Positions 7,999 through 41,962 of a DNA stretch of 64,000 nt are shown piece after piece (position 1 is the first letter of the stretch; the number at the start of each line of letters is the position of its first letter). The notes beneath the pieces are model-generated. The model worked only from the letters and a program-made list of their open reading frames with translations. It was not told the origin of the DNA and ran no database searches. The position numbers were made by a program, and so were the translations under genes. Source of the DNA: Eledone cirrhosa (Eukaryota); NCBI GenBank assembly GCA_964016885.1, contig OZ024764.1:8556001-8620000 (forward strand), given 5' to 3'.

Positions 7999-8013
7999 GA
8001 ATAAGTAACAAAC

Positions 8014-9100: not shown

Positions 9101-9109
9101 CTTTACACC

Positions 9110-10038
9110 ATCCACACAACACCCTCTCATAATATTGAATCAAATGGCTTGAAAACCCAGTACAATCTCACACAACACCCTCTCATAACACTGAATCAAA
9201 TGGCTAGAAAACCCAGTACAATACCAGTAATATCTCACACAACACCCTCTCATAACATTGAATCAAATGGCTTGAAAACCCAGTACAATACCAGTAATAT
9301 CTCACACACCACCCTCTCATAACATTGAATCAAATGGCTTGAAAACCCAGTACAATACCAGTAATATCTCACACACCACCCTCTCATAACATTGAATCAA
9401 ATGGCTTGAAAACCCAGTACAATACCAGTAATATCTCACACACCACCCTCTCATAACATTGAATCAAATGGCTTGAAAACCCAGTACAATACCAGTAATA
9501 TCTCACACACCACCCTCTCATAACACTGAATCAAATGGCTTGAAAACCCAGTACAATACCAGTAATATCTCACACAACACCCTCTCATAACACTGAATCA
9601 AATGGCTTGAAAACCCAGTACAATACCAGTAATATCTCACACACCACCCTCTCATACCATTGAATCAAATGGCTTGAAAACCCAGTACAATACCAGTAAT
9701 ATCTCACACACCACCCTCTCATACCATTGAATCAAATGGCTTCAAAACCCAGTACAATACCAGTAATATCTCACACACCACCCTCTCATACCATTGAATC
9801 AAATGGCTTGAAAACTCAGTACAATACCAGTAATATCTCACACACCACCCTCTCATACCATTGAATCAAATGGCTTCAAAACCCAGTACAATACCAGTAA
9901 TATCTCACACACCACCCTCTCATAACACTGAATCAAATGGCTTGAAAACCCAGTACAATACCAGTAATATCTCACACACCACCCTCTCATAACACTGAAT
10001 TAAATGGCTTGAAAACTCAGTACAATACCAGTAATATC
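9110..10038. repeat. 67-bp minisatellite (~14 copies) ending ~15 bp from the exon 11 donor
   Basis: Unit CTCTCATAACATTGAATCAAATGGCTTGAAAACCCAGTACAATACCAG... Confidence 0.95.
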
Positions 10039-10052
10039 TTAGTCCAACTTAC

Positions 10053-10238
10053 CACCTGTGTCTGAGAGTTCTTTATCAGAACTATTTTGGTTGGTCACCA
10101 ACTGGTTGGATGATTTCAACATGTTGATGAACAGGGCTGCCTTGCGTTTGCGTTCAGCCTGAAGTTGCTTTTCTTTAGTGGCCTGAGATAGCTTCTCTCG
10201 GGCAGCTAAAGCCAGACGGTCTTTCAGTTTCTCTTCAG
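10053..10238 (-). CDS. SFSWAP: SFSWAP coding exon 11 (conserved coiled coil)
   Basis: Reads [42 protein letters not shown], the conserved [15 protein letters not shown] segment. TTCCAG/GTAAGT. 186 nt, phase 1 to 1. Confidence 0.95.
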
Positions 10239-10688
10239 CTGGAAACAAACCATATAACAAGAGTTAGTAGGGATGTGTGAAAGAGAGAGAGAGGGGGGGG
10301 GGGAGAAGGTGAGAGCCAAAGAGATGACTTAAACATGATATATTCATTTCATTTTATGTCCACTTTTCCCTGCTTGCAAGGGTGGGACGGGAACTGATTC
10401 TGGCATGATTTCTACAGCTGGATGCCCTTCCTAACACCAACCTCATTTACAGTGGGTGCTGGGTGCTTTTTTGCCGTGGCACCTCCACGACCACTTTGCA
10501 GTGGAATGATAGGAACCCCAGTCCCTATCATCTCATTTCTACAGCTGAGTAAACTGGAGCAATGTGAAATAAAGTGTCTTGCTCAAGGAAACAACACATC
10601 ACCCGGTCTGAGAATTGAACTCACAACCTTTCGATTGCAAGGCCAATGCTCTAACCACTAAGCCATGTGCCTCCATATTATATATTAT

Positions 10689-10880
10689 AGGGCGGTGGAT
10701 TGGCAGTATCGGTAGAGAGTCGGACGCCATGCTTTCCAGCATAGAGTTACGTCTCTTTACGGTCTGAGTTCAAATCACGCCGAGGTTCACTTTGCCTTTC
10801 ATCCTTACGGGGTCGATAAAATAAAATACCAGTAATGTACTGGGTAATTGCTGGCCTTGTGCCAAAAGTAGAAACAATTA
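10689..10880 (+). mobile_element. tRNA-derived SINE family 1 (other copies ~4470, 5715, 20275, 23562, 26800, 32440, 36645)
   Basis: A-box-like TGGCAGTATCGG, B-box GAGTTCAAATC and central domain GCCTTTCATCC...GGTCGATAAAATAAAGTACCAG; many dispersed copies. Confidence 0.8.
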
Positions 10881-11456
10881 TATATAATATATATATATAT
10901 ATATTCATCTTTTTCCATTTCTTAGAGGGTTCTACCAGGCTAAAATTTCTTTAGTCAAAAGAATACGGCGAAAGCTTCTATTTCTAATTTCAAACTCGCT
11001 CGTTGTGTGTGTGTGTGTGTATGTGTTGTGTGTGTTGTGTGTGTGTGTGTTGTGTGTGTGTGTGTATATATCAACTAGAAATTGATTGACATATATATAT
11101 ATATCTAAAATAAACATATGAAACAATCACAGGGAATAATTGATATGGCGCATGTCCCTCTGACATGACACCCGTAATTTAATTTTGGATATATATATAT
11201 ATATATATATATATTGCTTTTTGTGAAAATCAGTCATATGGAACTATTGTCATCTTGCCTGACGGATTGAACTTTACAACACCACCTGCCTCTTTGAGGT
11301 TAAATACCAACCCTACTAGCATCTACAAACTGACCAATTAGAATTAAGATTATTCCTGCTGACAACATTAAATTATTCCTAACAAGCTCATATGTCCCAA
11401 GGCTCTGATACCATCAACACTATAAACACAGAGCTGACATATCTAAGAACTGACTA

Positions 11457-11514
11457 ACTGCCTGATGAGGTCTTAGCCATTCAATGGCTATCATCGAAAT
11501 ATATATATAGCAGT
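11457..11514 (+). ncRNA. Minimal type-I hammerhead ribozyme motif (Penelope-like repeat family A)
   Basis: actgc-CTGATGA-stem II (tagccatt/aatggcta)-GAAA-tatatata-TA-gcagt. Stem I actgc/gcagt; self-complementary stem III. Confidence 0.7.
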
Positions 11515-12019
11515 AAATAAAGGATTACGAGTTCATGCAATTGACTTATGTTTCGTCACTATACATATATATCATCATCATTTCATTTTATATCCACTTT
11601 TCCCTGCTTGCAAGGGTGGGACGGAAACTGATTGTGGCTTGATTTCTACAGCTGGATGCCCTTCCTAACACCAACCTCATTTACAGTGAGTGCTGGGTGC
11701 TTTTTTGCCGTGGCACCTCCACGACCACTTTACAGTGGAATGATATGGACCCCAGTCCCTATCATCTCATTTCTACAGCTGAGTAAACTGGAGCAATGTG
11801 AAATAAAGTGTCTTGCTCAAGGAAACAACACATCACCCGGTCTGAGAATTGAACTCACAACCTTTCGATTGCAAGGCCAATGCTCTAACCACTAAGCCAT
11901 GTATATATATATAAATAAAACAAGAGAGAGAGAGAGATTAGATAAAATGGATAGATATACAGATAGATGGATAGATAGTTGTATAGATAGTCTGACATAG
12001 ATTTTAAATAGGTAGATAG

Positions 12020-12415
12020 ATTTCTTTATTTGCCACAAGGGTGCACAAGAAATGGGACATTAAAGGACATATGGCGGAGGTCTTACATTTAAACGTGTAA
12101 ACAGTTTTAACAATTATTAAATAAATAATACAAAATCAAAATCCCCAATAGTGGGGAACATTACAACTGTGTTGTTTTACACCCCGAATATAGAACAACC
12201 CTCAACACCAGGAGCATGTTTTGCAAGAACTCCTGTCTTCTGTCTTTTGTCCTCTTCAACCTACATGTTTATACACAGAGAAGGCCCTTTCACTCGGGCC
12301 ATTCGCGCCACATTCACCCATCTTTCGGCAAATTTGCTGGGATGCAACACCTCTGTCTCTTCTCACCCTTCTTCTGAAATGGTATTTGAAGAGGGGGAGG
12401 AAGTGTTGTCATACA
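12020..12415 (-). mobile_element. Tx1/L1-clade LINE 3' fragment (same family)
   Basis: Homologous to 27001-27400, ends in AATAAAGAAA, and is flanked by AGATAG repeats. Confidence 0.8.
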
Positions 12416-12439
12416 AATAGATAGAATCATATAGCTAGA

Positions 12440-14410
12440 TAGGTGGACAGACAGACTGACAGCTACATAGACAGACAGACAGACAGACTGAGAGGTACAT
12501 AGACAGACAGACTGACAGGTACATAGACAGACTGACTGACAGGTACATAGACAGACAGACTGACTGACTGACAGACAGACTGAGAAGTACATAGACAGAC
12601 AGACAGACTGAGAGGTACATAGACAGACAGACTGACAGGTACATAGACAGACTGACTGACAGGTACATAGACAGACAGACTGACTGACCGACAGACAGAC
12701 TGAGAGGTACATAGACAGACAGACTGACAGGTACATAGACAGACAGACTGACTGACTGACAGACAGACAGACTGACTGAGAGGTACATAGACAGACAGAC
12801 TGACTGACAGACAGACAGACAGACAGACAGACTGACAGGTACATAGACTGACAGACTGACAGGTACATAGACAGACAGACTGACAGGTACATAGACAGAC
12901 AGACAGACTGACTGAGAGGTACATAGACAGACAGACAGACTGAGAGGTACATAGACAGACAGACTGACAGGTACATAGACAGACAGACTGACAGGTACAT
13001 AGACAGACAGACTGACAGGTACATAGACAGACAGACTGACAGGTACATAGACTGACAGACTGACAGGTACATAGACAGACAGACTGACAGGTACATAGAC
13101 AGACTGACAGGTACATAGACAGACAGACTGACAGGTACATAGACAGACAGACTGACAGGTACATAGACAGACAGACTGACAGGTACATAGACAGACAGAC
13201 TGACAGGTACATAGACAGACAGACAGACTGACAGGTACATAGACAGACAGACAGACTGACAGGTACATAGACAGACAGACTGACAGGTACATAGACAGAC
13301 AGACAGACTGACAGGTACATAGACAGACTGACTGACAGGTACATAGACAGACAGACTGACAGGTACATAGACAGACAGACTGACAGGTACATAGACAGAC
13401 AGACTGACAGGTACATAGACAGACAGACAGACTGACAGGTACATAGACAGACAGACAGACTGACAGGTACATAGACAGACAGACTGACAGGTACATAGAC
13501 AGACAGACAGACTGACAGGTACATAGACAGACTGACTGACAGGTACATAGACAGACAGACTGACAGGTACATAGACAGACAGACTGACAGGTACATAGAC
13601 AGACAGACTGACAGGTACATAGACAGACAGACAGACTGACAGGTACATAGACAGACAGACAGACTGACAGGTACATAGACAGACAGACTGACAGGTACAT
13701 AGACAGACAGACAGACTGACAGGTACATAGACAGACTGACTGACAGGTACATAGACAGACAGACTGACAGGTACATAGACAGACAGACTGACTGACAGGT
13801 ACATAGACAGACAGACAGACTGACAGGTACATAGACAGACAGACTGACAGGTACATAGACAGACAGACAGACTGACAGGTACATAGACAGACTGACTGAC
13901 AGGTACATAGACAGACAGACTGACAGGTACATAGACAGACAGACTGACTGACAGGTACATAGACAGACAGACAGACTGACAGGTACATAGACAGACTGAC
14001 TGACAGGTACATAGACAGACAGACAGACTGACAGGTACATAGACAGACAGACTGACTGACAGGTACATAGACAGACAGACAGACTGACAGGTACATAGAC
14101 AGACAGACTGACTGACAGGTACATAGACAGACAGACAGACTGACAGGTACATAGACAGACTGACTGACAGGTACATAGACAGACAGACTGACAGGTACAT
14201 AGACAGGCAGACTGACAGGTACATAGACAGACAGACTGACAGGTACATAGACAGACAGACTGACAGGTACATAGACAGACAGACTGACAGGTACATAGAC
14301 AGACAGACTGACAGACTGACTGAGAGGTACATAGACAGACAGACAGACTGACTGAGAGGTAGACAGACAGACAGACAGACTGAGAGGTAGACAGACAGAC
14401 AGACAGACTG
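12440..14410. repeat. (GACA)n-based compound satellite
   Basis: AGGTACATAG(ACAG)nACTGAC units of ~20-28 bp. Confidence 0.95.
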
Positions 14411-14450
14411 TTGATTGACATGAGATAAGTCCTCAAAAGAAACAACTCAC

Positions 14451-14624
14451 CCATCTTCCTGTTCATTAGGTCATGGCTGGGTTCCCGCTTGTCAGTTTTC
14501 TCCTCACTGACCCCCTTCATCTCTACCTTCTTCACCTGGGGTTCTGTTGCCGCTTCAGAGGGGACAGGGCTGTTGTTGGTGGTGCTGCTGGTGGTGCTGG
14601 TAGGTTGAGGGGCCTTCAGCTCAT
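14451..14624 (-). CDS. SFSWAP: SFSWAP coding exon 10
   Basis: TTCCACAG| acceptor. Reads DELKAPQPTSTT...HDLMNRKM. Donor GTGAGT. 174 nt, phase 1 to 1, in frame with neighbours. Confidence 0.85.
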
Positions 14625-15059
14625 CTGTGGAAGAATATTTAAAGGGCAGCATTAGAATATGTTGTCATAGATGGAGGTGATCTTCAGTTGAGGTCCTTTA
14701 GCTTATCTGGGGAAGACTATTTGGGGGACAGTATTGTAATATAGGGTGCTAGGAGTTGATGGTAGGTTGAGGGGTCCTTTAGTTTATCCGAGGGAAATAT
14801 TTAGGGGACAATATTTTAATATAGGGTGCTAGGAGTTGATGGTAGGTTGAGGGGTCCTTTAGTTTATCTGGGGAAGACTATTTAGGGGACAGTATTGTAA
14901 TATAGGGTGCTAGGAGTTGATGGTAGGTTGAGGGATCCTTTAGTTTATCAAAGGGAAATATTTAGGGGACAGTATTGTAATATAGGGTGATAAAGAAAAC
15001 AAGAAAGAGAAGAAAAAAGAAAGAAAATGATAAAAGAAAAGAAAAATGTAAGCAGAAAG

Positions 15060-17150
15060 ATGGAGGAGGACAGAAGAAGAAGACAGGGGACGGAAGAAGA
15101 CAGGACGGAAGACAAGACAGAGCAAGTCTGAGGGCGGAAGACAGGGGACGGAAGACAAGATAGAGCAAGACAGAAGACAGGGGACGGAAGAAGACAGAGG
15201 ACGAAAGACAAGATAGAGCAAGACTGAGGGTGGAAGACAGGGGACGGAAGACAAGATAGAGCAAGACAGAAGACAGGGGACGGAAGAAGACAGAGGACGA
15301 AAGACAAGATAGAGCAAGACTGAGGGTGGAAGACAGGGGACGGAAGACAAGATAGAGCAAGACAGAAGACAGGGGACGGAAGAAGACAGAGGACGGAAGA
15401 CAAGATAGAGCAAGACTGAGGGTGGAAGACAGGGGACGGAAGACAAGATAGAGCAAGACAGAAGACAGGGGACGGAAGAAGACAGAGGACGAAAGACAAG
15501 ATAGAGCAAGACTGAGGGTGGAAGACAGGGGACGGAAGACAAGATAGAGCAAGACAGAAGACAGGGGACGGAAGAAGACAGAGGACGGAAGACAAGATAG
15601 AGCAAGACTGAGGGTGGAAGACAGGGGACGGAAGAAGACAGAGGACGAAAGACAAGATAGAGCAAGACTGAGGGTGGAAGACAGGGGACGGAAGACAAGA
15701 TAGAGCAAGACAGAAGACAGGGGACGGAAGAAGACAGAGGACGGAAGACAAGATAGAGCAAGACTGAGGGTGGAAGACAGGGGACGGAAGACAAGATAGA
15801 GCAAGACAGAAGACAGGGGACGGAAGAAGACAGAGGACGGAAGACAAGACAGAGCAAGTCTGAGGGCGGAAAACAAGATAGAGCAAGACAGAAGACAGGG
15901 GACGGAAGAAGACAGAGGACGGAAGACAAGATAGAGCAAGACTGAGGGTGGAAGACAGGGGACGGAAGACAAGATAGAGCAAGACAGAAGATAGGGGACG
16001 GAAGAAGACAGAGGACGGAAGACAAGATAGAGCAAGACTGAGGGTGGAAGACAGGGGACGGAAGACAAGATAGAGCAAGACAGAAGACAGGGGACGGAAG
16101 AAGACAGAGGACGAAAGACAAGATAGAGCAAGACTGAGGGTGGAAGACAGGGGACGGAAGACAAGATAGAGCAAGACAGAAGACAGGGGACGGAAGAAGA
16201 CAGAGGACGGAAGACAAGATAGAGCAAGTCTGAGGGTGGAAGACAGGGGACGGAAGACAAGATAGAGCAAGACAGAAGACAGGGGACGGAAGAAGACAGA
16301 GGACGGAAGACAAGATAGAGCAAGACTGAGGGTGGAAGACAGGGGACGGAAGACAAGATAGAGCAAGACAGAAGACAGGGGACGGAAGAAGACAGAGGAC
16401 GAAAGACAAGATAGAGCAAGACTGAGGGTGGAAGACAGGGGACGGAAGACAAGATAGAGCAAGACAGAAGACAGGGGACGGAAGAAGACAGAGGACGAAA
16501 GACAAGACAGAGCAAGTCTGAGGGTGGAAGACAGGGGACGGAAGACAAGATAGAGCAAGACAGAAGACAGGGGACGGAAGAAGACAGAGGACGGAAGACA
16601 AGATAGAGCAAGACTGAGGGTGGAAGACAGGGGACGGAAGACAAGATAGAGCAAGACAGAAGACAGGGGACGGAAGAAGACAGAGGACGAAAGACAAGAT
16701 AGAGCAAGACTGAGGGTGGAAGACAGGGGACGGAAGACAAGATAGAGCAAGACAGAAGACAGGGGACGGAAGAAGACAGAGGACGGAAGACAAGATAGAG
16801 CAAGACAGAAGACAAGACAGAAGAAGACAGAAGATGGAAGACAAGACAGAAGAAGACAGAGGATGGAAGACAAGACAGAAGAAGACAGAGGACGGAAGAC
16901 AAGACAGACGAAGACAGAAGATGGAAGACAAGATAGAAGAAGACAGAAGATGGAAGCAAGACAGAAGAAGTTAGAGGACAGAAGACAGAAGATGGAAGAC
17001 AAGACAGAAGAAGACACAGGACAGAAGAAGACAGAGGATAGAAGAAGACACAGGAGAGAAGAAGACAGAGGATAGAAGAAGACAGAGGACGGAAGACATG
17101 ACAGAAGATGACAGAGGGCGGAAGACAAGATAGAATAAGACAGAAAACGG
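15060..17150. repeat. Purine-rich satellite with 96-bp higher-order unit
   Basis: GAAGACA-based subunits with period 96. Confidence 0.95.
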
Positions 17151-17169
17151 AAGAAGAGAGTTTACTCAC

Positions 17170-17332
17170 CAACTTCACTTCCTTCTTCACTGCTCTCATA
17201 AGTAAACACCGGCCGTTTCTCAAACGATACACTCTCTTGTTCCTTGTTCTTGGTCTTTATAGAAAAACTGACTCCTTTGTTTTGGGCTGAGCTCTTCTGT
17301 TCTTCAATTTTGCTCTTCTCCTGCTCAAATTC
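17170..17332 (-). CDS. SFSWAP: SFSWAP coding exon 9
   Basis: Reads EFEQEKSKIEEQKSSAQNKGVSFSIKTKNKEQESVSFEKRPVFTYESSEEGSEV (conserved VSFSIK). TAG/GTGAGT. 163 nt, phase 0 to 1. Confidence 0.88.
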
Positions 17333-17389
17333 CTAGCGTTTCAAAGTGGAGAATGGGCACACAAGATGTATATATTATACACATATATG

Positions 17390-17946
17390 TAAAAAAAAGT
17401 GCAGGGCGATCAAAATAGGTGGAAGTAACGGAGTAAGCAGACCCAGAAAAACTTGGGACGACTTGATAAATTCCGACCTTAAACACTTGCACCTCTCCAA
17501 GACAATGTCACTGGACCGAGATCTTTGGCACTACGCAGTAATACAGAAGACCCACCTTGCCTAAGTACAAAGCGAAACCTACAGTCAGTAGGCACCTCTT
17601 AACCAAAATACACCCCCATCCCACTACCCCTACCCCCATCTCCACCACCCGTTTCGATGTAAAGTTATGTTGGTGCCACAACATCCAGTCCTAAATAAAT
17701 GAGGTCGTGTAGGTGTCACGACAAAAAAACACAGTCCACGCTGTAATGTAGCCGTGTAGGTAACACGGTAAAACCTCCCAGTCCACACTGTAAACGTGGT
17801 TGGTGTTAGGAAGGGCATCCATTCGTAGAAAACCCGCCAGACAGTCCTGTACGAGCAAGACAACCAATCTTGCCTCAAGTGGGACAATTCCCATCCAAAT
17901 CTATGCTAGCGTGGAAGATGGACGTTAAACAATGATGATGATGATG
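17390..17946 (+). mobile_element. RTE LINE 3' end + 3'UTR + (ATG)n tail (family whose UTR holds the 49-bp unit)
   Basis: KCRAIKIGGSNGVSRPRKTWDDLINSDL...stop, then UTR and (ATG)n. Homologs lie at 29463-30095 (-) and 55420-61015 (-). Confidence 0.8.
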
Positions 17947-17994
17947 TAAGTTTGTTTTGAAAACAGCAAACAAAGTTGAAATTTGAAATTTAGT

Positions 17995-18606
17995 AGAACT
18001 GATTCTGCTATAAGTACCAGATCGTCAACATAGAGAAGTTCCCGTGGGCAGCCAGTCTTAAACTCCTCTGTTATGGCTTGGAGAACTATAATGAATAAGA
18101 GTTGGCTGAGGACTGAACCCTGATGAACTCTTACTTGTATCTGGAATTCCTCACTAAACTCCATTCGTACCCTCACTTTACTGACAGCTCCTCTGTACAT
18201 AGCTTGCACTGTCCTCACAAGCCATTCGTCTACACCTAATTTCCTTAGGGACCACCAGATGACAGATCGAGATACTCTATGAAGAGCTTCTCGAAGTAAC
18301 ATATGTGTGTGTGTAAGAGGGATAAGTTGTGGTATTCAGGAGAGAAGGCTGAGATGGTATGGACATGTGATGCGCCTGAAGGATGACCACTGGGTGAAGA
18401 AGTGCCAGGAAGTCCCAGTGGAGGGAAGATGCAGTAGAGGTAGACCACTAAAAACATGGGTGGAGGTGGTGAGAGCAGACCTCAGATCACTGAAACTCAC
18501 CGAGGGGATGACGAAAGACCGTGATGGGTGGAGAGATGTTGTGCTGAATAGGACTCATCTCACCCTTGCAAGCAGGGTAAAAAGCGGACGTAAAATGATG
18601 ATGATG
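17995..18606. mobile_element. RTE LINE fragments: RT domain (- strand) abutting 3' end (+ strand)
   Basis: Minus strand: WWSLRKLGVDEWLVRTVQAMY...VHQGSVLS.LLF...LLYVDDLVLIAES. Plus strand: ERRLRWYGHVMR...GRPLKTW plus (ATG)n tail. Confidence 0.85.
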
Positions 18607-19552
18607 TGTGTTAAGTATTTCCGTGGAAAAGGTAAAGGAAAGAAGATTTCTATCTGATGAGCGATATCACACGTTTCTGTTAGAATCGTGTAACTTCGTG
18701 AAACCTTGGGTAATGAAATAATTATATTGTGTTGTTTATTATGTAATTTTAATGATATAGCCCAGTCCCAACCATATATCATAGGTTTCTTGGGTGTTTT
18801 AATGATAGGGACCCCAGTCCTGTCATGTTTATGTTACAGCTCACACCTATGTAGGTTTAGCTGGCTTCCTACAAGGTCGTATCTCATACAAGGTTTCTTG
18901 GATGTTTTAATGATAGGGACCACAGTCCTAACATGTATCTTATAGGAGGTTCCGGGATGTTTTAAGGATAGGAGCTCCAGTCCTAACACATATCACATAG
19001 AAGGTTTCCGGGGTGTTTTAATGATAGGGGCCCCAGTCCTAACACATATCTCATAGGTGGTTTCCAGGGTGTTTTAATGATAGGGGCTCCAGTCCTTGTC
19101 TTGCTTGTACAGAAGTGATTTTGGCTTGATTTCTACAGCTGGATGCCCTTCCTAACACCAACCTCATTTACAGTGAGTGCTGGGTTCCTTTTTTGCTGTG
19201 GCACCTCCACAACCACTTTGCAGTGGAATGATATGGACCCCAGTCCCTATCATCTCATTTCTACAGCTGAGTAAACTGGAGCAATGTGAAATAAAGTGTC
19301 TTGCTCAAGGAAACAACACATCACCCGGTCTGAGAATTGAACTCACAACCTTTCGATTGCAAGCCCAATGCTCTAACCACTAAGCCATGCGCCTTATGAA
19401 TTCAGTATCTTATTTAAAATTTAATTTGACAGGGGGCCGTTGACAAACAAGTTTGCGCCCAAAGGGGCCGCTGGCTGAAAAAAAGGTTGGGAAACCCCGA
19501 TGTAAAGCAACATGAAATGAAGACCCTAAACAAAAATATATAATCAACTAAC

Positions 19553-19757
19553 CTTCATGTGTAAGTTCTTCTTGAACTCATAGTAAGGGTAGTGGAGATG
19601 TTCCTCCATTAGGAACTCAAAGCGAGGGTCACATTTGTTTTTCACCACTATTTCAAACTCAATGCCGTTCTTTGCGACATACAGTGCCATCTTGTCAATG
19701 ACAGGCTGGACGTCAGGAGGTGGTGGTATGATGTGCCCTTTAGGGGAGTCAGCGCCA
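19553..19757 (-). CDS. SFSWAP: SFSWAP coding exon 8 (SURP/SWAP domain 2)
   Basis: Reads IIPPPPDVQPVIDKMALYVAKNGIEFEIVVKNKCDPRFEFLMEEHLHYPYYEFKK. TTTCAG acceptor, GTTAGT donor. 205 nt, phase 2 to 0. Confidence 0.95.
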
Positions 19758-20059
19758 CTGAAAGAGACCAAACAACAAAAAAAAAAACAATCAACAGAAC
19801 TGCTAGATGAGAGCCTGTGTGTGGTTGTGGTATGATGACCCTTTAGGGGAGTCAGTGCCACTGGAAGAGACCAAACAACAATCAACAGAACTGCTAGATG
19901 AGAGCCTGTGTGTGGATAAGGTGTTCCCGTCGCAACCACTGGGACCTGGGTTCAGACCCATTGTGTGATACCTTGAGAGGGGCAAACGATTATTTGAGAC
20001 CCGAGAGTACAAAGAAAAATATAGCAAGTCTTCTTGTCGTGTCCACAATTATCAGTTAC

Positions 20060-21110
20060 AAAGGTATTATATATTCCTGGAAGGAAGGTTGGTTGGTAAG
20101 AGAAGCAGAGGCTGGCAGCCAAAACAATGGCTTGATAATGTCAACTTATGGACTGGACTTGATCTTTGCTCTTTAAACTCTTGTGTTGGTGATGGAAAGG
20201 TATTATATATTCCTGGAAGGAAGGTTGGTTGGTAGGAGAAGCAGAGGCTGGTAGCCAAAACGATGGCTTAATAATTGTTTATACTTTTGACACAAGGCCA
20301 GCAATTACCCCAGTGTATTACTGGTACTTTGTTTTATCGACCCCATAAGGATGAAAAGCAAAGTTAACCTCGTTGTGATTTGAACTCAGACCGTAAAGGG
20401 GTGTAAATCTATGCTACAAAGCATGGCGTCCGACCCTCTACCGATACTGCCAACCCCTCATCCCAAAACAATGGCTTAATAAAGTCAACTTATGGACTGG
20501 ACTTGATCTTTGCTCTTTAAACTCTGCTGTTGGTGATCGAAAGGTATTATATATTCCTGGAAGGAAGGTTGGCTGGTAAGAGAAGCAGAGGCCGGCAGCC
20601 AAAACGATGGCTTGATAATGTCAACTTATGGACTGGACTTGATCTTTGCTCTCTAAACTCTGCTGTTGGTGATCGAAAGGTATTATATATTCCTGGAAGG
20701 AAGGTTGGCTGGTAAGAGAAGCAGAGGCCGGCAGCCAAAACAATGGCTTGATAATGTCAACTTATGGACTGGACTTGATCTTTGCTCTTTAAACTCTGCT
20801 GTTGGTGATCGAAAGGTATTATATATTCCTGGAAGGAAGGTTGGCTGGTAAGAGAAGCAGAGGCCGGCAGCCAAAACGATGACTTGACAATGTTAACTTA
20901 TGGATGGACTGGACTTGACCTTTGCTCTTTAAACTCTGCTGTTGGTGATCGAAAGGTATTATATATTCCTGGAAGCAAGGTTGGCTGGTAAGAGAAGCAG
21001 AGGCCGGCAGCCAAAACAATGGCTTGATAATGTCAACTTATGGACTGGACTTGTACTTTGCTCTTTAAACTCTGCTGTTGGTGATCGAACTTTGTGAAGA
21101 GAGATATCAT
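20060..21110 (+). repeat. 136-bp tandem repeat derived from an RTE LINE C-terminus, interrupted by a SINE
   Basis: The unit encodes IFLEGRLAGKRSRGRQPKRWLDNV. An unexpanded homolog is at 45960-46100 (-). Confidence 0.8.
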
Positions 21111-21192
21111 ATGTTGATGCGCCATCTACAACTGGCGGAGTTTAGCACCACAAGAAGATAGGAACAACATCAATGGCAATAAAAACACTTAC

Positions 21193-21405
21193 CCATACAC
21201 TGTACTTTCTGTTGGATCAGAGGATTCAGTGGCAGGGCAGGAGGTCTGACTGGCATCTGTCCCAGGGGGGTCAGGTTGATTGGCAGGTGGCAGTGTAACA
21301 GGTTCCACACCAGGTGGTGGTGGTACATTGTTGGGGTAACTTGGTTCAGCTAGGAATGGTGACACTGTTGGTTTCTGTTCCGAGGTTTCAGCTTCTTTAG
21401 ATTTA
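21193..21405 (-). CDS. SFSWAP: SFSWAP coding exon 7 (proline-rich)
   Basis: (CT)n tract + AAG acceptor. Reads KSKEAETSEQ...VPPPPGVEPVTLPP...STVY. Donor GTAAGT. 213 nt, phase 2 to 2. Confidence 0.85.
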
Positions 21406-21466
21406 CTTTGAGAGAGAGAGAGACGAGGTAGATGGTTATATGATATAACTATATGTCTATCTAGAC

Positions 21467-21520
<54 letters not shown>

Positions 21521-21690
21521 GGGGGGTTGATAAATAAAGCAAAACAAACACAGCGTTGCAAAAATACCAAGTCTTATCTGGTCACACACACACACACACA
21601 TACATACATATATATATATATATATATGTCCAAGGCTCTGATACCATCAACATTATAAACACAGAGCTGGCATATCTAAGAACTGACTAT

Positions 21691-21746
21691 CTGCCTGATG
21701 AGGTCATAGCCATTCAATGGCTATCATCGAAATATATATATAGCAG
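21691..21746 (+). ncRNA. Minimal type-I hammerhead ribozyme motif (second copy of family A)
   Basis: ctgc-CTGATGA-ggtcatagccattcaatggctatcatc-GAAA-tatatata-TA-gcag. The flanking ~170 bp is shared with 11395-11562. Confidence 0.7.
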
Positions 21747-21788
21747 TAAATAAAGGATTATGAGTTCATGCAATTGACTTATGTTTCG

Positions 21789-21823
<35 letters not shown>

Positions 21824-21856
21824 TTGTGACCTAATCTTCAGGTGCTTATTGTTTGA

Positions 21857-21892
<36 letters not shown>

Positions 21893-22882
21893 TCCTAAAC
21901 ACACAACACATATATACACATCTAAACACACACAGTTATATATATTGTTATACTTTGGGAGGGTCATGCTGCCAATAAAAACACACCCACCTGTTGGTTT
22001 TCACTTCAATTTATTATAAATTTCCAGAAATTTATAATAAATTGAAGTGAAAACTAACAGGTGGGTATGTTTTTATTGGCAACAAGACCCTCCCAAAGTA
22101 TAACAATATCTGTTTCAACACACGCTTTCAGATAAGAAATCTTACAAAACAAATTCAAAAACGAATTATATATATATACACACATATGTATATACATGGA
22201 GGCACATGGTTTAGTGGTTAGAGCACTGGGCTTGCAATCGAAAGGTTGTGAGTTCAATTCTCAGACCGGGTGATGTGTTGTTTCCTTGAGCAAGGCACTT
22301 TATTTCACATTGCTCCAGTTTACTCAGCTGTAGAAATGAGATGATAGGACTGGGGTCCCTATCATTCCACTGCAAAGTGGTCGTGGAGGTCATCATCATT
22401 TCATCATTTCATTTTACGTCCGCTTTTTCCCTGCTTGCAAGGGTGGGACAGGAACTGATTCTGGCTTGATTTCTACAGCTGGATGCCCTTCCTAACACCA
22501 ACCTCATTTACAGTGAGTGCTGGGTGCTTTTTTTCCGTGGCACCTCCACGACCACTTTGCAGTGGAATGATAGGGACCCCAGTCCCTATCATCTCACTTC
22601 TACAGCTGAGTAAACTGGAGCAATGTGAAATAAAGTGTCTTGCTCAAGGAAACAACACATCATCCGGTCTGAGAATTACAAGGCCAATGCTCTAACCACT
22701 AAGCCAAGTGCCACGGCAAAAAAGCACCCAGCACTCACTGTAAATGAGGTTAGTGTTAGGAAGGGCATCCAGCTGTAGAAATCAAGCCAGAATCAGTTCC
22801 CGTCCCACCCTTGCAAGCAGGGAAAAGCGGACATAAAATAATGATGATAATGATGATACACACCTAAACACAAAACGCTTAC

Positions 22883-23057
22883 CTCTTCTTGGCATTCTGG
22901 TGCCGTGCTGTGGCAGCTTTGACTGAGCGAACAAGGTCTCCATATGCTGTGTTGTGCATGTCAACAGCAGGTAGTTTGATGGGTTTACGAGGTTCTGATT
23001 TAATAGATTTCAGGGTCAACAGAGGGTGGAGGTAGCTGTTCTGGTCGTCCCCTCCAT
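22883..23057 (-). CDS. SFSWAP: SFSWAP coding exon 6
   Basis: Reads DGGDDQNSYLHPLLTLKSIKSEPRKPIKLPAVDMHNTAYGDLVRSVK (SWAP YLHP and AY..LV motifs). TAG/GTAAGC. 175 nt, phase 1 to 2. Confidence 0.9.
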
Positions 23058-24239
23058 CTATATGATTAAACACAGATACAGAGATGATATATTAGAATTT
23101 ACATTACTCTATATATACTATTGTATTTTCATGGTAAATGCTTTATCTCACATAATATCTTATCTATGAGATTTTGAAAGTATTTATTTTGAGAACAATA
23201 CCTTAACATCAGTTTGAGCAGCCAGTTACAGCCAGTTTCAACAAAAAAGGGTAGAGAATTCTGGCCGGTTTGAACATTAAAGGGTTTAATAACACTTTGG
23301 CCCTAGCTGGACATGACAGAGATAAAGAGATGTCTGTATATATATATATACATGTAAAATAATAGTAATATACATGACACATATATACATATATATATAT
23401 AGTTTACCCCTAACATTCGCGGAATTTTTCTTAGAACCTAACTAATAATAGTTCATTGAAATCACTGCATATTCGCGGAACCATAAATATCTTCCGTCAT
23501 TTTTTAATGGCTTTTTTCATGACAATATTTAGACATGATATATATTCATATTATATATTATAGGGCGGTGGATTGGCAGTATCGGTAGAGAGTCGGACGC
23601 CATGCTTTCCAGCATAGTTACGTCTCTTTACGGTCTGAGTTCAAATCTCGCCGAGGTTAACTTTGACTTTCTTCCTTACGGGGTCGATAAAATAAAGTAC
23701 CAGTAATACACTGGGTAATTTGCAGGCCTTGTGCCAAAAGTAGAAACAAATATTTATTTTTTCGTGCTTTTTATCACTAAATTATTAATAACAATATACT
23801 GTATTTACTGGCCTATATTTTATGTTTTATCTTCGTAATATAAAATTAAAAAAATTAGTTGCAATGTGTGCAATTAGTTATGTGTGGCCCTCAGGGGACC
23901 CTCAGTTTGACATGCATGATATACAGTGTACCCCTGACAATCAGGGTTCCGGTTATCCACGGAATTTTCCTTAGAACCTAACTAATAATTGTTCGTGCAA
24001 GCCGCTGCATATTGGCTTTTTTTGTGGCAATATATATTTTTCCACGCTTTTTAACGCTAAATTATTGATAACAATATACAGTATTTGCTGGCTTATATTT
24101 TATGTTATGTTATGTTTTGACGTTTATAGGCATTTTTATGAACCCTGTCCAATCATCATCGTTTAACGTCTGTCCGTGTCTCGCTCGCATAGGACTGTAT
24201 CTGGCAGGTTTTCTACGGCTGGTTGTCCTTCCTAACACC

Positions 24240-25090
24240 AACCACATTACAGTGTGGACTGGGAGCCTTTTTACCGTGTCTCCTAAACGACAACGTTACA
24301 GCGTGGACTGGGAGCCTTTTTACCATGTCTCCTAAACGACAACTTTACAGCGTGGACTGGGAGCCTTTTTACCGTGTCTCCTAAAGAACAACTTTACCGC
24401 ATGGACTGCGAGCCCTTTTACCGTGTCTCCTAAACCACAGACAACTTTACAGTGTGGACTGGGAGCCTTTTTACCATGTCTCCTAAACGACAATTTTACA
24501 GTGTGGACTGGGAGCCCTTTTACAGTGTCTCCTAAACGACAGACAACTTTATAGTGTGGACTGGGAGCCTTTTTACAGTGTCTCCTAAACAACAGACAAC
24601 TTTACAGTGTGGACTGGGAGCCTTTTTACAGTGTCTCCTAAACGACAGACAACTTTACAGTGTGGACTGGGAGCCCTTTTACAGTGTCTCCTAAACGACA
24701 GACAACTTTACAGTGTGGACTGGGAGCCTTTTTACAGTGTCTCCTAAACGACAGACAACTTTACAGCGTGGACTGGGAGCCTTTTTACCGTGTCTCCTAA
24801 AGAACAACTTTACCGCATGGACTGCGAGCCCTTTTACCGTGTCTCCTAAACCACAGACAACTTTACAGTGTGGACTGGGAGCCTTTTTACCATGTCTCCT
24901 AAACGACAATTTTACAGTGTGGACTGGGAGCCTTTTTACAGTGTCTCCTAAACAACAGACAACTTTACAGTGTGGACTGGGAGCCTTTTTACAGTGTCTC
25001 CTAAACAACAGGCAACTTTACAGTGTGGACTGGGAGCCTTTTTACAGTGTCTCCTAAATGACAGACAACTTTACAGTGTGGACTGGGTGC
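24240..25090. repeat. 49-53-bp minisatellite from RTE 3'UTR
   Basis: TTTACAGTGTGGACTGGGAGCCTTTTTAC unit embedded in the element. Confidence 0.9.
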
Positions 25091-25291
25091 TTTTTTTGTC
25101 ATGACACCTACACAACTTCTTTAGTTTGGACGATTTTTCACTATTCTCAGGTGCTCTAGGAATGTAACCCCCCCCCCCCCAATACCGGGGGACAACTGTA
25201 TATACCTATTGTCCAACCTTACATATCTGACTGTGTAGTTTTTGAATGCTCAACAACACCTGTTTAATAATAAAAAAAAAGCAAGTCTTAC

Positions 25292-25514
25292 CTTCCTCGT
25301 CAGGCGAGGTTTCTATATTTGGTTTATATTTGCCTGACTTGATCATCTTGAGGACATGTTTATAGTAGGGGCAGAGAACGTTGTCGATGTTCAAGAACTC
25401 AAAAAGAGGGTTAGATGACTGCTTGGTTTTCAGCATGATTTCCATCTGACCTCCTTGCATTACTACAAAGTTGGCAGTTCTTACAATTATGGCATTGATC
25501 TTGTTACTGTCAGG
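25292..25514 (-). CDS. SFSWAP: SFSWAP coding exon 5 (SURP/SWAP domain 1)
   Basis: Reads PDSNKINAIIVRTANFVVMQGGQMEIMLKTKQSSNPLFEFLNIDNVLCPYYKHVLKMIKSGKY. TAG acceptor, GTAAGA donor. 223 nt, phase 0 to 1. Confidence 0.95.
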
Positions 25515-26438
25515 CTACAAGGAGAGAGAGAAAGAGAGGTAGATTCGATTTTATGTGAGACTAGACCACCTGTGACCCATTGGGTCATGTTCACTTCAAA
25601 ATATTAAAAAAAAATCATGTTCACTTAAAAATAATTTTTAAATAATTAAAATATACACAGACATATATATAATGTGAAATGAAACTGGAAGGCCTATATA
25701 TATCATCATCATCATTTCAATTTACGTCCACTTTTCCCTGCTTGCAAGGGTGGGACGGGAACTGATTCTGGCTTGATTTCTACAGCTGGATGCCCTTCCT
25801 AACACCAACCTCATTTACAGTGAGTGCTGGGCGCTTTTTTGCCGTGGCACCTCCACGACCACTTTGCAGTGGAATGATAGGGACCCCAGTCCCTATCATC
25901 TCATTTCCACAGCTGAGTAAACTGGAGCAATGTGAAATAAAGTGTCTTGCTCAAGGAAACAACACATCACCCGGTCTGAGAATTGAACTCACAACCTTTC
26001 GGTTGCAAGGCCAATGCTCTAACCACTAAGCCATGTGCCTCCATGACATATATATAATGTGAAATGAAACTGGAAGGCCTATATATATATGTGTATGTAT
26101 ATATATATATATATGTGGGTTTCTGTGATCTATATACACTGGTCATAGACACACACACTCACATATATATATATACGCAACAACACCACCAGATCTCTCT
26201 TTCTTCCATTCTCCTTCTCTGTCTCCTCTCTCTCTCTGTTTATGAAAGTACTCAGAAATCCCCATATCTCAGGAACCCGTGCTTCGATTTACGCAAAACT
26301 TGTTTTATTCCATTTGTATTCCCATTTCAGGGTCAACTTCCTTTCAAAGTATTTTCCCATTATGTGCCCTTTTGGCCGTATTACATTACAGACAAGCAAG
26401 CAAGCAATCACAGACTTTTAGTAATATATAAATAATTA

Positions 26439-26606
26439 CTGTATTTCCCAGCGTCGAAGAGGCTACTTTTTTCCTCAAATAAGTCTAAAAAATCTACCAT
26501 GCCTCCTGGAAGCCGAAGGTTGTTTATCATTTAAAAAAAAATTTTTGGTTGTCAAACTTGGGGTACGTCTTCGAGGACGAAGCTTCATCGGCGCCAGGAA
26601 ATACAG
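26439..26606. mobile_element. Tc1/mariner-type MITE
   Basis: TA-CTGTATTTCCCAGCGTCGAAG...CATCGGCGCCAGGAAATACAG-TA; homologous to 709-875. Confidence 0.7.
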
Positions 26607-27000
26607 TATGTAAGGTAAAGCCTTTACCACAAAAATACAATAGTTTATATAGAGTAATGTAGATGCTAAAGGGTTAAACCTGGCAGAGCCCAGTCCTTTC
26701 CAGGTCTGAATTCAGCAGATTTGTTGCAGGGAAGAATAGAGAGAGTGAAAGAATGGAAACGTGAGAAAGAGATATCGAGGAAGAATCGACCCCAGTACGA
26801 GAAGACTGGTACTTTTTTTTATCAACCTTGAATGGATGAAAGGCAAAGTTGACCATAGCGGGATTTGAACTCAGAGAGACGAAATGAATACTAGAAAGTA
26901 TTCTATCTGACGTTCTAATGACTTTACAAATTCGTCACCTCCATAGACAGACAGATATATAGGCAAATAGAGAGACTAGAGAGACATAGATAGATAGATA

Positions 27001-27567
27001 TATTTCTTAATTAGCCACAAGGGCGCACAAGAAAAGGGGACAATACAAAGACATGCCAGGGATTTTACATGCAGTCGTGTAAAAAATATAAAAACAAACA
27101 ATTACAACAATCGAAATCCCCAATAGTGGGGAGGCGCCACAAATGGGTTGTTTAATACCCCATCAATAGAACAACCCTCAACTCCAGGAGCGTGTTGTGC
27201 AAGTGCTCCTTTCTTCCTTTTGCTCTCTTCCTCAACCTACAGGCTTATAAACAGAGAAGGCCCAATCACTCGGGCCATTTTCGCTTCACCCACCTTTCAG
27301 TAAATTTACTGGGGTGTAGTGCCTCTCTCTCCACCCTAATTCTCCTTCTAAAGTGATACTTAAAGAAGGGAATGAGTTGTTGTCCGGAGAGAAAGGCATC
27401 TGTCCTCAGTCCCCTCAACCTCGTCCACCATATAACTTCTTTCACCATAGCCACCGTACAGAGGAAAACCGCCTCTCTTTCGTTTTTGAAAGAGGCTGGC
27501 GGTTTGATCCTTACTATGGACTCGGCAGTCAACTGGATTTGTCCCATACGCGACAGCAGTTGTTCTG
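27001..27567 (-). mobile_element. Tx1/L1-clade LINE 3' fragment (same family)
   Basis: AEQLLSRMGQIQLTAESIVRIKPP...KEVIWWTRLRGLR matches the 44949 ORF. Flanked by CATAGATAGATAGATA on both sides. Confidence 0.85.
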
Positions 27568-27623
27568 CATAGATAGATAGATAAGACACACAGACAGTAG
27601 AGTAGACTATAAAATATACTCAC

Positions 27624-27694
27624 TATTGTAACATCATCTGGAACTTGAAGTTCTTTGGGTGGGACAAACTTTTCAACAGCAGCTTCAAGGGCAG
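27624..27694 (-). CDS. SFSWAP: SFSWAP coding exon 4
   Basis: TTCTAG| acceptor. Reads AALEAAVEKFVPPKELQVPDDVTI (the F.PP..L.VP.DV motif preceding SURP1). Donor GTGAGT. 71 nt, phase 1 to 0. Confidence 0.9.
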
Positions 27695-27727
27695 CTAGAA
27701 AGAATAATATAGCATATATATATATAT

Positions 27728-28066
27728 ATGGAGAGACATGGCTTAGTGGTTAGAGCATTGGGCTTGCAATCGAAAGGTTGTGAGTTCAATTCTCAGACCG
27801 GGTGATCTGTTGTTTCCTTGAGCAAGGCACTTTATTTCACATTGCTCCAGTTTACTCAGCTGTAGAAATGAGATGATAGGTCTGGGGTCCCTATCATTCC
27901 ACTGTAAAGTGGTCGTGTAGGTGCCACGGCAAAAAAGCACCCAGCACTCACTGTAAATGAGGTTGGTGTTAGGAAGGGCATCCAGCTGTAGAAATCAACC
28001 CAGAATCAATTCCCGTCCCAACCTTGCAAGCAGGGACAAGCGGACGTAAAATGATGAATGCTGATG
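27728..28066 (+). mobile_element. tRNA-derived SINE family 2 with RTE-type tail (other copies ~10345, 11575, 19115, 22198-22855, 25705)
   Basis: TGGCTTAGTGG A-box, GAGTTCAATTC B-box and CCTTGAGCAAGGCACTT core; 3' end CCTTGCAAGCAGGG...GGACGTAAAATGATG. Confidence 0.85.
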
Positions 28067-28390
28067 ATATATATATATATATATATACACGTGTGAATGA
28101 ATGTGTGTTTGTGTATGTGTGTGAATACACACTCGTGTGAATGAACGTGTGTGTGTAAGGTGTGAAGGTGTGTGGCTGAGTGGTTAGAGAATTGGATTCA
28201 CAATATTGAGGTTGTGAGTTCGATTCCTGGACTGGGCGATACGTTATGTTCTTGAGCAAGACACTTTACTTCACGTTGCTCCTTCTACCTGGAGTTGCGA
28301 CCTATAGATAGATAGTATTAGCAATTGGAAAGACCGATGAAAACATTGTTTGCTCGGTCTGATTTGATGAAAGTCGATCGATCCTATCTA

Positions 28391-28454
<64 letters not shown>

Positions 28455-28857
28455 AAAGGTAAACAGAAATAACAACACAATCGGTACAGTATATGGAAGA
28501 AATATATTAGGTTAACGATTGATATAACAACAAGAGGGCCTTAACGTTTTGGACGCTAGTCCTTCATCAGAAGAAAGAATGAGAAATAAGATAGACTGAT
28601 GGATGGGCGGGGTGGAATTGGAAAAAATTCTATATATATATATATATGGTACAAAATAGGGGTGGTTTCAGGTGATTTAGTACTAAAAAGGTTAAACCAG
28701 GGGTGGTTTCGGGTGGTTTGAGTCCAAAAGGGTTAAATCTAGGTATGGTTTAGATTCAAAAGGGGTTAAAACTAAAGGCGATTCTAAGGGGTTCGGTATC
28801 ATGAGGGGTGGTTTCAGGTAGTTTTGGTATGAAATGAATATGATGAAACCAGCTTAC

Positions 28858-28974
28858 CATTCAACTCAGGATCCTCATTCTCTGGCACCAAAGCATCGGT
28901 CGGCTGTTCGTACCGAAAGCCAACAGCATTGAACCCCTCCGATAGTGACTGGTAGTAGCGCTTCCATTCTTCTT
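28858..28974 (-). CDS. SFSWAP: SFSWAP coding exon 3
   Basis: TTTTAG| acceptor. Reads EEEWKRYYQSLSEGFNAVGFRYEQPTDALVPENEDPELN (conserved EEEYKR...NAVGF.Y). Donor GTAAGC. 117 nt, phase 1 to 1. Confidence 0.93.
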
Positions 28975-31667: not shown

Positions 31668-31837
31668 CTTCGTACAGCGCTTGCTCCTGGATGTCTGTGT
31701 GCAGCTCCAAGTAGCGTTCCTTGTCACAGAGGGCTTCAATGTGCTTCTCCTCTTCGGACAGGGTGCAGTCGGCATTGTTGCTGTTGCAAGACGCATCGTA
31801 GGGCGTCAGGTCATAGAGGTGACCTCGCCCATCGTAC
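31668..31837 (-). CDS. SFSWAP: SFSWAP coding exon 2 (DRY_EERY domain)
   Basis: TAG|G acceptor. Reads [56 protein letters not shown]. Donor G|GTAAGT. 170 nt, phase 2 to 1. Confidence 0.95.
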
Positions 31838-32957: not shown

Positions 32958-32989
<32 letters not shown>

Positions 32990-35683: not shown

Positions 35684-35757
<74 letters not shown>

Positions 35758-37049
35758 AGTTAAAAAAAAAAATCATTTGATTTTGGATTTCAATTTTAAT
35801 GGGTTTTAAATTTTCCATTAATTTCAAGGACAGTTTTATTGGGCCGAGTTCATTTTGCATTTAATGGCTAAGTCGAAGAACTTGTCACTATTAGAAATCT
35901 TACCCCATCTTACCATTCTCAACGACAGCAGAAAAACATTCTAAATGTACACTGGGTGCTGAAAACCTGAAAATTAATTTGTTAAAACAAAGGATGGAAG
36001 GAAGAAAAGAAAGAAAAGAAAGCTGCCTTCCCCCACCCACGAACAAATCCAACCCCTTCTTCCACCCTATACCCACTAAATATTTCAAACTTATCACTCA
36101 ACTCTTCTGTAAACCACATGAAAAATAATTTTTGTAGCTCACCTATGTAGGTTTAGTTGCCCTCCTACAAAGTTGTATGGCATAATAGGTTGTTGTTACC
36201 GCTCACATTTATGTAGGTTGAGCTGGCCCCTGACAAGGTTTCTTGCAGGTTTTAATTATATGGACCCCAGCCCTTTCATGTTGTTACAGTTTACACCTAT
36301 GTAGGTTTAGCTGGCCTCCTACAAAGTTGTATTTCATGGGTTTCTGAGGTGTTTTAATGATAGGGGCCGCAGTCTGATCATGTGTTATTACAGTTCACAC
36401 CTATATAGATTTAGCTGGCCTCTTACAAGGTTGCATTTCATAGGAGATTTCTTGGGTGGTGCTTTAACGCTTTAGTGTTCAAACCGGCCAGAATTCTCTA
36501 CCTCTTTCTCTTGAAACTGGCTGTAACTGGTCGCTCAAACTGATGTTAAGGTATTGTTCTCAAAAAAAAATACTTTCAAAATCTCAGATTCAATATTATG
36601 TGAGGTAAAGCCTTTACCATGAAAATATAATAGTGTATATAAAATAATTGTTTCTACTTTAGGCACAAGGCCAGCAATTACCCAGTGCATTACTGGTACT
36701 TTATTTTATCGACCCCGTAGGGATGAAAGGCAAAGCCAACCTCGGCGGGATTTGAACTCAGAATGGCAAGGGCCGTAACTCTATACGTCAAAGCATGGCG
36801 TCCGACCCTCTACCGATACTGCCAGTCCACCACCCTAGCATGGCGTCCGACCCTCTACCGATACTGCCAATCCAATCATTAATGGTAACACCTTTTTCCA
36901 TTCAGAGGGTTTTTTGTAAAATCTCAACTTACAGACTAATTAAGTAAAGGGACGTAACTATGCTGGAAAGCATGGCGTCCGTCCCTCTACCAATACTGCC
37001 AATCCACCGCCCTGTGTATATAAAATAATGTGAATGCTAAAGCGTTAAT

Positions 37050-41220: not shown

Positions 41221-41666
41221 TGGTTGGTGTTAGGAAAGGCATCCAGCTGTAGAAAACCTGCCAGATACAGTCCTATACGAGTGAGACACGGTCACCCGAT
41301 CAATCTTGCCTCAAGTGGGACAATTCCCATCTAACCTATGCCAGCGTGGAAGATAGACATTAAACGATGATGATGATGATATATATATATTTCATTTTCA
41401 TTCACGGAAATTACTGGTAATTGTTTGTAATAATCTTAAAATGAAGGATTATCCATAAAATGAAGGATTATCCATAAAAAAAAACAAGCATTTTTTAAAA
41501 AGCCAGAAGGAAGATTAAAGATGAGAAAAAGAAAAAATAGGTAGACAGGCAGAATAATAATAATAATAATATATATATAGTATATATATTTTTTTTGGAA
41601 TTTCAAAAATTCGAAAGTTTAAATCGAAACCTTTTAACGAATCATCCTTGGGTTTAAGGCACAGAC

Positions 41667-41814
41667 CTGTCAATCGTTATGTTGCTGTCATCCATCCACG
41701 GTATAAGGTGTCTCTCTTCCTCTATGTAGGCAGCTTTCTCGTCGTAGGGGAACAATTTGCAGGCATAACCAAACACCAGTAGCTCGTCATGGTCGTTGCT
41801 GGTGGTGTTGTTGT

Positions 41815-41852
<38 letters not shown>

Positions 41853-41962
41853 TTGGGGATGATGTTGTGGTGGTGGAGGATGTCGGTGGCTTTCTTGTCT
41901 TTCTCCATCATCATCATCATCTTACTGGTTGCATCCGTGGAGCCTAACCACGGACCGGACAT
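41667..41962 (-). CDS. SFSWAP: SFSWAP / suppressor of white apricot homolog, first coding exon (low-complexity N-terminus + start of DRY_EERY domain)
   Basis: Translates to ...[40 protein letters not shown], matching the SWAP N-terminal motif ([11 protein letters not shown]...HLIPWM...IDRYD). Donor AG|GTCTGT at 41666, phase 2. The exact start ATG is uncertain because several Met are present. Confidence 0.92.

Follow-up and report, generated by a model that had tools for sequence, protein, structure and literature searches.

The window, a stretch of 64,000 nucleotides from the octopod Eledone cirrhosa, carries on its minus strand the orthologue of SFSWAP/SWAP, with the N-terminal DRY_EERY domain, two SURP domains and the C-terminal RS region all present in Pfam and tblastn comparisons. 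The coding part of exon 1 (41667..41962, minus strand, 296 nt) terminates inside the arginine codon of the DRY motif (phase 2) and covers positions 2-40 of Pfam DRY_EERY (E 3e-11); over residues 59-99, its domain is 85% identical to the Octopus sinensis protein XP_029652984.1. Exon 2 (31668..31837, minus strand) is 170 nt long, as is its counterpart in human SFSWAP, and covers positions 41-90 of the same family (E 2e-9). Exons 3-14 (1464..28974, minus strand), found by tblastn with the protein P0007, encode the two SURP domains (Pfam Surp matched twice) and an RS-rich region. The O. sinensis SFSWAP protein is represented in the window by 14 exons in their proper order (tblastn), and the remainder, together with the end of the gene, lies outside it in the neighbouring stretch L036. 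Intron 1 extends from 41666 to 31838 on the minus strand (9,829 nt, phase 2) and splits the arginine codon of the sequence IDR-YD. Tandem repeats are abundant in the window.

Several further traits of the exons were recorded. Between 41880 and 41800 (minus strand), exon 1 contains a low-complexity expansion of Met, His, Ser and Asn residues that is not found in O. sinensis, and the protein counts 99 residues up to the DRY arginine, compared with 61 in O. sinensis. The exon-2 methionine, used as start by the X2 gene models of Octopus described below, is a leucine here. A second good donor (31653-31645, minus strand, score 9.0) is situated 17 nt behind the exon-2 donor and its use would shift the frame; no counterpart was seen in the six homologous exon-2 ends where the donor was scored, and in human exon 2 the alternative donor lies 47 nt upstream instead. 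At 8061-8010 (minus strand), exon 12 passes into a GGT repeat, which makes the placement of its donor uncertain.

A candidate cassette exon in intron 1

A first-pass annotation of this DNA had proposed that intron 1 harbours a poison cassette exon with tandem acceptors and tandem donors, set in a non-repetitive island. We re-derived every acceptor, donor, exon coordinate, frame and the intron extent from the sequence, and all of them stood. The main form of the candidate occupies 35914..35966 (minus strand, 53 nt) and shifts the frame; it is put forward on grounds of sequence, frames, splice-site scores and single-copy status. Acceptors at 35966 and 35958 are 8 nt apart, and donors follow 35914 and 35904, both reading G/GTAAGA (the slash marks the splice point). 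The 10-nt extension to the second donor (35904..35913, minus strand, donor score 8.5) yields, in combination with acceptor 35966, a 63-nt form. The cassette is preceded by an AG-free zone (35969..36022, minus strand) with 56 nt between the AGs, containing a pyrimidine tract whose best 30-mer contains 29 pyrimidines in 30 positions; a branch-point-like TTAAC, recognized by consensus only, is found at 35985-35981.

Translation of the four acceptor-donor combinations confirmed the reading frames proposed earlier. Inclusion of the 53-nt form results in a frameshift to a TGA at 31808-31806, 29 nt into exon 2 and 138 nt before its end. Both forms that start at acceptor 35958 (45 and 55 nt) carry an in-frame TGA at 35921-35919, within the cassette itself. 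The 63-nt form, the only one free of stops, remains in frame, belongs to an open stretch of 65 codons and would insert 21 residues between IDR and YD of the DRY motif. A stop codon generally elicits nonsense-mediated decay (NMD) when it precedes a downstream junction by more than 50-55 nt. In three of the four forms, 138-185 nt separate the premature stop from the end of exon 2, and the putative cassette thus has, in these three forms, the stop position required of a poison exon.

The claim of a non-repetitive island was likewise borne out. Positions 35850-36060 gave a single match in the 3.0-Gb genome, namely the sequence itself, in a search that skips simple repeats. Contigs of three DNA runs, all from one sample that is possibly the source of the window itself, covered 35760-36307 with no differing letter and at low depth, whereas the depth in the same contigs was very high in the repeat that starts at about 36270. 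We regard the cassette as a real single-copy island because these contigs are identical to it and combine low depth here with very high depth in the adjoining repeat; in the contig comparison, positions 35989-36023, which comprise the region of the pyrimidine tract, were handled as simple repeat. No RNA run was listed among those containing 35760-36200, the three listed ones behaving as genomic DNA of one sample. The adjoining element (36270-37040), which on the minus strand immediately precedes the cassette, is a very high-copy dispersed repeat with contig depth of up to millions.

Splice sites were scored with a matrix derived from SFSWAP's own sites, 12 donors and 12 acceptors, which is a small basis; the exon-12 donor and the exon-7 acceptor near 21410, being of uncertain placement, were excluded from it. 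Acceptor 35966 scores 6.6 and acceptor 35958 scores 3.1, at the low end of the real acceptors (2.4-14.9), and the two cassette donors score 9.6 and 8.5, where real donors reach 8.4-12.6 in sample. The candidate is therefore a set of exon-like splice signals in a coding intron, with scores inside the range of the real sites of the gene.

How often such signals arise by chance was estimated from the window plus 20 neighbouring 10-kb stretches, scanned on both strands with tandem repeats masked (268,184 strand-bases). Eighteen units attained the scores of the candidate: eight SFSWAP exons, the candidate and nine others. An AG-free zone of at least 40 nt precedes all eight real exons and the candidate, as against one of the nine other units, and the candidate alone among the 18 has a second donor beside the first. 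Paired GGT(A/G)AG donors no more than 10 nt apart occur twice in the 268 kb, the candidate being one of these cases. When the sense strand of the gene (22,983 unmasked bases) is searched at the candidate's scores, no exon-like unit turns up beyond the real exons and the candidate itself. Intron 1 has 5,778 bases left unmasked, for which ten threshold settings gave between 0.02 and 1.3 expected chance units, the lower value under the strictest setting (scores of the candidate plus an AG-free zone of at least 40 nt) and the upper one under the loosest. Since the expected count spans this range and the strict settings were fixed at the candidate's own values, the signals are suggestive, not decisive, and only modestly above chance.

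At the looser thresholds (0.2-1.3 expected), weaker exon-like units appear in the 3´ part of intron 1 as well (32646-32409, minus strand). A like unit in L051 suggests that these pairs belong to a dispersed repeat.

The exon-1 donor and intron 1 in other animals

The donor of intron 1, CAG/GTCTGT (41661..41669, minus strand), is by far the weakest of SFSWAP in the matrix scores, reaching 3.1 compared with 8.4-12.6 for the 12 other donors. The same 9-mer was found in seven of 13 loci of other animals in which this donor was scored, three of the seven being termite loci. About 33 nt behind the donor lies a conserved intronic motif of 12 nt, AAGGTTTCGATT (41622..41633, minus strand), which has one match in the window, recurs exactly at a like position in locus L024 and is present in related forms in L020 and L021. 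Of 52 intron read-through peptides, 14 (two of them near-duplicates) show its three-frame peptide trace no more than 30 residues behind IDR, a number that averaged 0.49 and never exceeded 4 in 2000 shuffles; none of the 29 peptides of the other class shows it. The motif had been defined from the window and L024 and was then tested on the 52-peptide set. The trace is found in many animals, in all three frames and 29-53 nt from the donor. A sequence similar to the motif, AAGGTTTG, sits deeper in the short introns of L013 and L014, inside a conserved block, and a cuttlefish-like read-through peptide, P0004, closely matches the first intron bases of the window. AAGGTTTCGATT is likely a splicing-regulatory element. 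Neither the weak conserved donor nor this motif had been noticed in the earlier annotation.

Read-through peptides beginning with Ser-Val or similar residues make up 79 of 166 rows, a share that we excluded as a count of conservation because the search profile included that tail and was thereby biased. The use of AAGGTTTCGATT as an alternative donor was considered and abandoned: its scores, taken one base off register, are unsupportive, and GTTTCG deviates from the donor consensus at +3 to +6. No shared RNA fold was found at the donor and motif region or at the cassette (z from -1.7 to +0.8, no covariation). An Rfam search of 31500-42200 returned 30 matches, all under the gathering score and mainly in simple repeats.

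A scan of metagenome contigs provided 34 SFSWAP loci, among which 29 were inspected at the end of exon 1 and 22 intron-1 sequences were compared (13 whole, 9 partial). Exon 1 of locus L004 is 100% identical over 63 residues to the protein P0068, which clusters with Coptotermes formosanus, the contigs being those of a termite host. The termite intron 1 measures 6.4 kb and contains, in its middle, an invariant run of 240 nt shared by L004, L006, L008 and L011 (L004 7809-8048, that is, intron-1 positions 3281-3520). L006 and L011 are identical and were counted once, so the run is free of differences among three sequences whose pairwise identity is 91-92% and whose next longest invariant run is 47 nt. 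Two donors lie in this island, of which the last reads G/GTAAGAT, along with tandem acceptors of the form CAG/GTnnnCAG at a spacing of 8 nt. All ten acceptor-donor combinations that were translated carry stops, the in-frame forms of 156 and 102 nt included. Judged by its sequence, the termite island is by itself a strong candidate for a poison exon.

Seven occurrences of the pattern CAG/GTnnnCAG were counted in the 268-kb octopod background. Octopod intron 1 has one on its sense strand, which is that of the candidate, and the termite intron likewise has one, which falls within the island. Apart from the four termite sequences that reach the island, 18 other intron sequences, mostly short or partial, were scanned, and none contains the 8-nt tandem acceptor. 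Beyond the splice sites, similarity between the octopod cassette and the termite island stays at chance level, 134-409 of 1000 shuffles being as good. The main forms of 53 nt in the octopod, 110 nt in the termite and 137 nt in human all leave a remainder of two on division by three and thus cause the same frameshift.

Among the 22 intron-1 sequences of other animals, one (L025) resembled the octopod cassette more than all 100 shuffles did, which counts for little because 22 tests were made. Strong internal donors exceeded shuffles at p<0.05 in only two of the 22 introns and are not enriched in most. Inspection by eye suggested candidate micro-exons in L020 and L021 and, in short introns, a conserved acceptor near +100; both were dropped after scoring weakly. 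In L017, L019, L022 and L028, four related contigs that we take to be from a coral-like lineage of marine invertebrates, the first 390 columns of the aligned intron 1 are 84% invariant, compared with 61% for the rest, and this conserved 5´ block ends at two kept internal donors, one of which varies from GTAAGT to GTGAGT. The fish-like locus L003 has, near the contig end, an exon-like unit at intron-1 positions 1278-1326 with the adjacent donors GTAAG/GTAAGA.

At the protein level, the Octopus cluster comprises six proteins. Among them, the isoform X2 models of O. sinensis (XP_029652985.1) and O. vulgaris begin at the exon-2 methionine, so that precisely the first 84 residues are missing. Such models are what one would expect of a transcript in which exon 2 is not read in the frame of exon 1; a retained intron or a different first exon could equally account for them, and the model of O. 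vulgaris is possibly not independent of that of O. sinensis. None of the six proteins has additional residues at the DRY motif. No candidate came out of a protein search with the cassette frame, the insert frame has no Pfam match, and no truncated or insert-bearing product matching the octopod cassette was present among the 166 proteins inspected. A few proteins with other residues after IDR, gene models from fish, quail and sea spider among them, were set aside.

Possible roles of the cassette

Beyond the splice signals, the support comes from comparison with other animals. We lean slightly towards reading 35966-35914 as a poison exon of octopod SFSWAP that is alternatively spliced within intron 1. 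The broader statement that the candidate is a functional unit, either a poison or a decoy exon, appears probable, since these two readings overlap. The following course of events may be envisaged. Removal of intron 1 would be slow because its donor is weak, and abundant SFSWAP protein would further restrain the direct joining of exon 1 to exon 2. The strong internal donor could then permit recognition of the cassette, whose inclusion is predicted to shift the frame inside the DRY motif and to end translation 29 nt into exon 2. The resulting mRNA, with its stop 138 nt before the next junction and at least 13 junctions downstream, would be destroyed by NMD; alternatively, recognition of the cassette might leave intron 1 detained. 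Three of the four splice choices would be unproductive, because the second acceptor also gives rise to stop-containing forms, and the stop-free 63-nt form would require the weaker donor and disrupt the most conserved motif of the protein. We infer that SFSWAP would regulate itself through this cassette.

Two other readings bear directly on this scheme. The candidate may be a chance pseudo-exon, made of pyrimidine-rich simple sequence before an AG and of two donor-like 9-mers, in which case any feedback would act via retention at the weak exon-1 donor alone. Without the filter for the AG-free zone, 0.19-1.3 such units are expected per intron, the cassette acceptors score at the low end, the pyrimidine tract was handled as simple repeat, and neither the intron comparisons nor the protein search gave a sequence homologue. 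Strict settings, on the other hand, expect only 0.02-0.04 units, tandem donors occur twice in 268 kb, the invariant termite island shares the acceptor layout, and human SFSWAP has a cassette in the same intron (supplementary data of PMC12017769). On balance, we consider a chance origin possible but not likely. Or else the unit could be a decoy exon, bound by U1 and U2 and seldom ligated, which would compete with the weak true donor so that intron 1 is detained in the nucleus and the output is retention rather than NMD. Clustered splice sites are typical of decoy exons, and the internal donors (9.6 and 8.5) clearly surpass the true donor (3.1). PMC12017769 moreover enters the human cassette as a putative decoy within a retained intron and describes SFSWAP as promoting intron detention and affecting decoy use. 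Against this, the frames are mostly poisonous, a property relevant only if the exon is ligated, and the cassette of Caenorhabditis elegans swp-1 is included and NMD-sensitive (PMC2265522). A pure decoy seems to us distinctly unlikely, and the decoy and poison modes are not mutually exclusive.

Two more readings concern particular forms of the cassette and are far less probable. Were the 63-nt form a functional micro-exon, SFSWAP would exist in a variant with 21 residues in the DRY motif; the stop-free sequence within a 65-codon open stretch fits this idea, but the insert is missing from all six proteins of the Octopus cluster, its frame has neither a Pfam match nor a homologue, the in-frame termite forms (156 and 102 nt) contain stops, and the form depends on the weaker donor. 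A coding role is accordingly very improbable. The remaining reading, to which we give hardly any credence, is a recursive-splicing exon, where joining of exon 1 to 35966 regenerates a donor (CAG/GT) that competes with the cassette donors. The first acceptors of octopod and termite are both AG/GT, and cryptic recursive-splicing exons are about 50 nt long and usually out of frame (PMC8605326). The same source describes ratchet donors as generally the stronger ones, whereas the regenerated donor, at -2.3 in the octopod and 0.5 in the termite, falls far short of the cassette donors and also ranks below the weak true donor. Since membership in this class calls for a strong regenerated donor, the value of -2.3 speaks against the assignment.

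A more far-reaching version of the poison-exon reading can be formulated, to which we attach little confidence. An ancient module of three parts, namely the deliberately weak GTCTGT donor, AAGGTTTCGATT at 30-50 nt behind it and a mid-intron cassette with 8-nt tandem acceptor (ultraconserved in termites), might extend from cnidarian-like animals to molluscs, insects and vertebrates; the octopod cassette would then be orthologous to the others, and the module would sense the level of SFSWAP without any RNA-binding domain. How SWAP proteins lacking such a domain control their own first introns is an old question. If the octopod poison exon is used, self-limitation of SFSWAP extends to a lophotrochozoan, and cis-elements by which SWAP could control its own first introns (weak donor, 12-nt motif and cassette) are pinpointed.

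Relation to known systems of unproductive splicing

The proposal of a poison cassette fits with the human 137-nt cassette, the termite island and the premature-stop cassette of swp-1. Contrary to what the first-pass annotation implied, the event is not restricted to this lineage. The class is already known from the human and worm cassettes, and the surprise is therefore moderate; less expected are the conserved motif and the invariant termite island. In the literature covered, with most subscription papers outside coverage, we found no description of a mollusc SFSWAP cassette, of the AAGGTTTCGATT motif or of the termite island.

Autoregulation of SWAP through unproductive splicing of its 5´ introns, which the first-pass annotation had taken as established, is indeed on record for fly su(wa)/SWAP, acting on its first two introns, as cited in PMC12017769. 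In Drosophila, as proposed for the octopod, unproductive splicing affects 5´ introns of the same gene, but intron retention has been described there, in contrast to the cassette inclusion proposed here. A 1994 abstract belonging with the work of Zachar (1987, 1994) and of Denhez and Lafyatis (1994) is said to report that the positions of SWAP junctions are conserved. In C. elegans, swp-1 contains a non-triplet cassette that introduces a premature stop on inclusion and goes up in smg-1 and smg-2 mutants (PMC2265522); it is a cassette of the same kind as the octopod one, likened to it without regard to position in the gene. According to Table 5 of PMC8652244, SFSWAP is also one of nine AS-NMD targets common to human, mouse, fly and worm; section 6 of that paper notes that the mechanism of poison exons frequently persists where their sequence does not. 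The poison exons of SR proteins and of RBM39/caper are of this type, exerting negative AS-NMD feedback with mechanism, not sequence, being conserved. Unlike in those systems, feedback by SFSWAP would run via protein contacts mediated by SURP domains rather than via direct binding, because the protein is devoid of a canonical RNA-binding domain (PMC12017769).

The closest parallel is human SFSWAP. Supplement 7 of PMC12017769 lists a putative decoy cassette of 137 nt (chr12:131713517-131713653) in the intron 131711448-131714070 (2,623 nt), which separates the first SFSWAP exon from the 170-nt one, and according to supplement 6 retention of that intron falls from a PSI of 0.079 in controls to 0.021 upon SFSWAP knockdown, with a probability of change of 0.86. 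Section 9 of the same paper presents SFSWAP as a promoter of intron detention that affects decoy use. The candidate event resides in intron 1, one of the first two introns, at the same position as the human one. Both species thus share the gene, the intron before the 170-nt exon and a frame-shifting cassette inside it. They differ in that the human intron is 2.6 kb long, with a cassette of 137 nt that is placed nearer the 3´ end and has been seen in RNA, whereas the octopod unit, of 53 or 63 nt and known from sequence alone, stands midway in a repeat-filled intron of 9.8 kb; the two were compared by position and length. The octopod unit is likely the counterpart of the self-limiting SFSWAP switch known in human, fly and worm.
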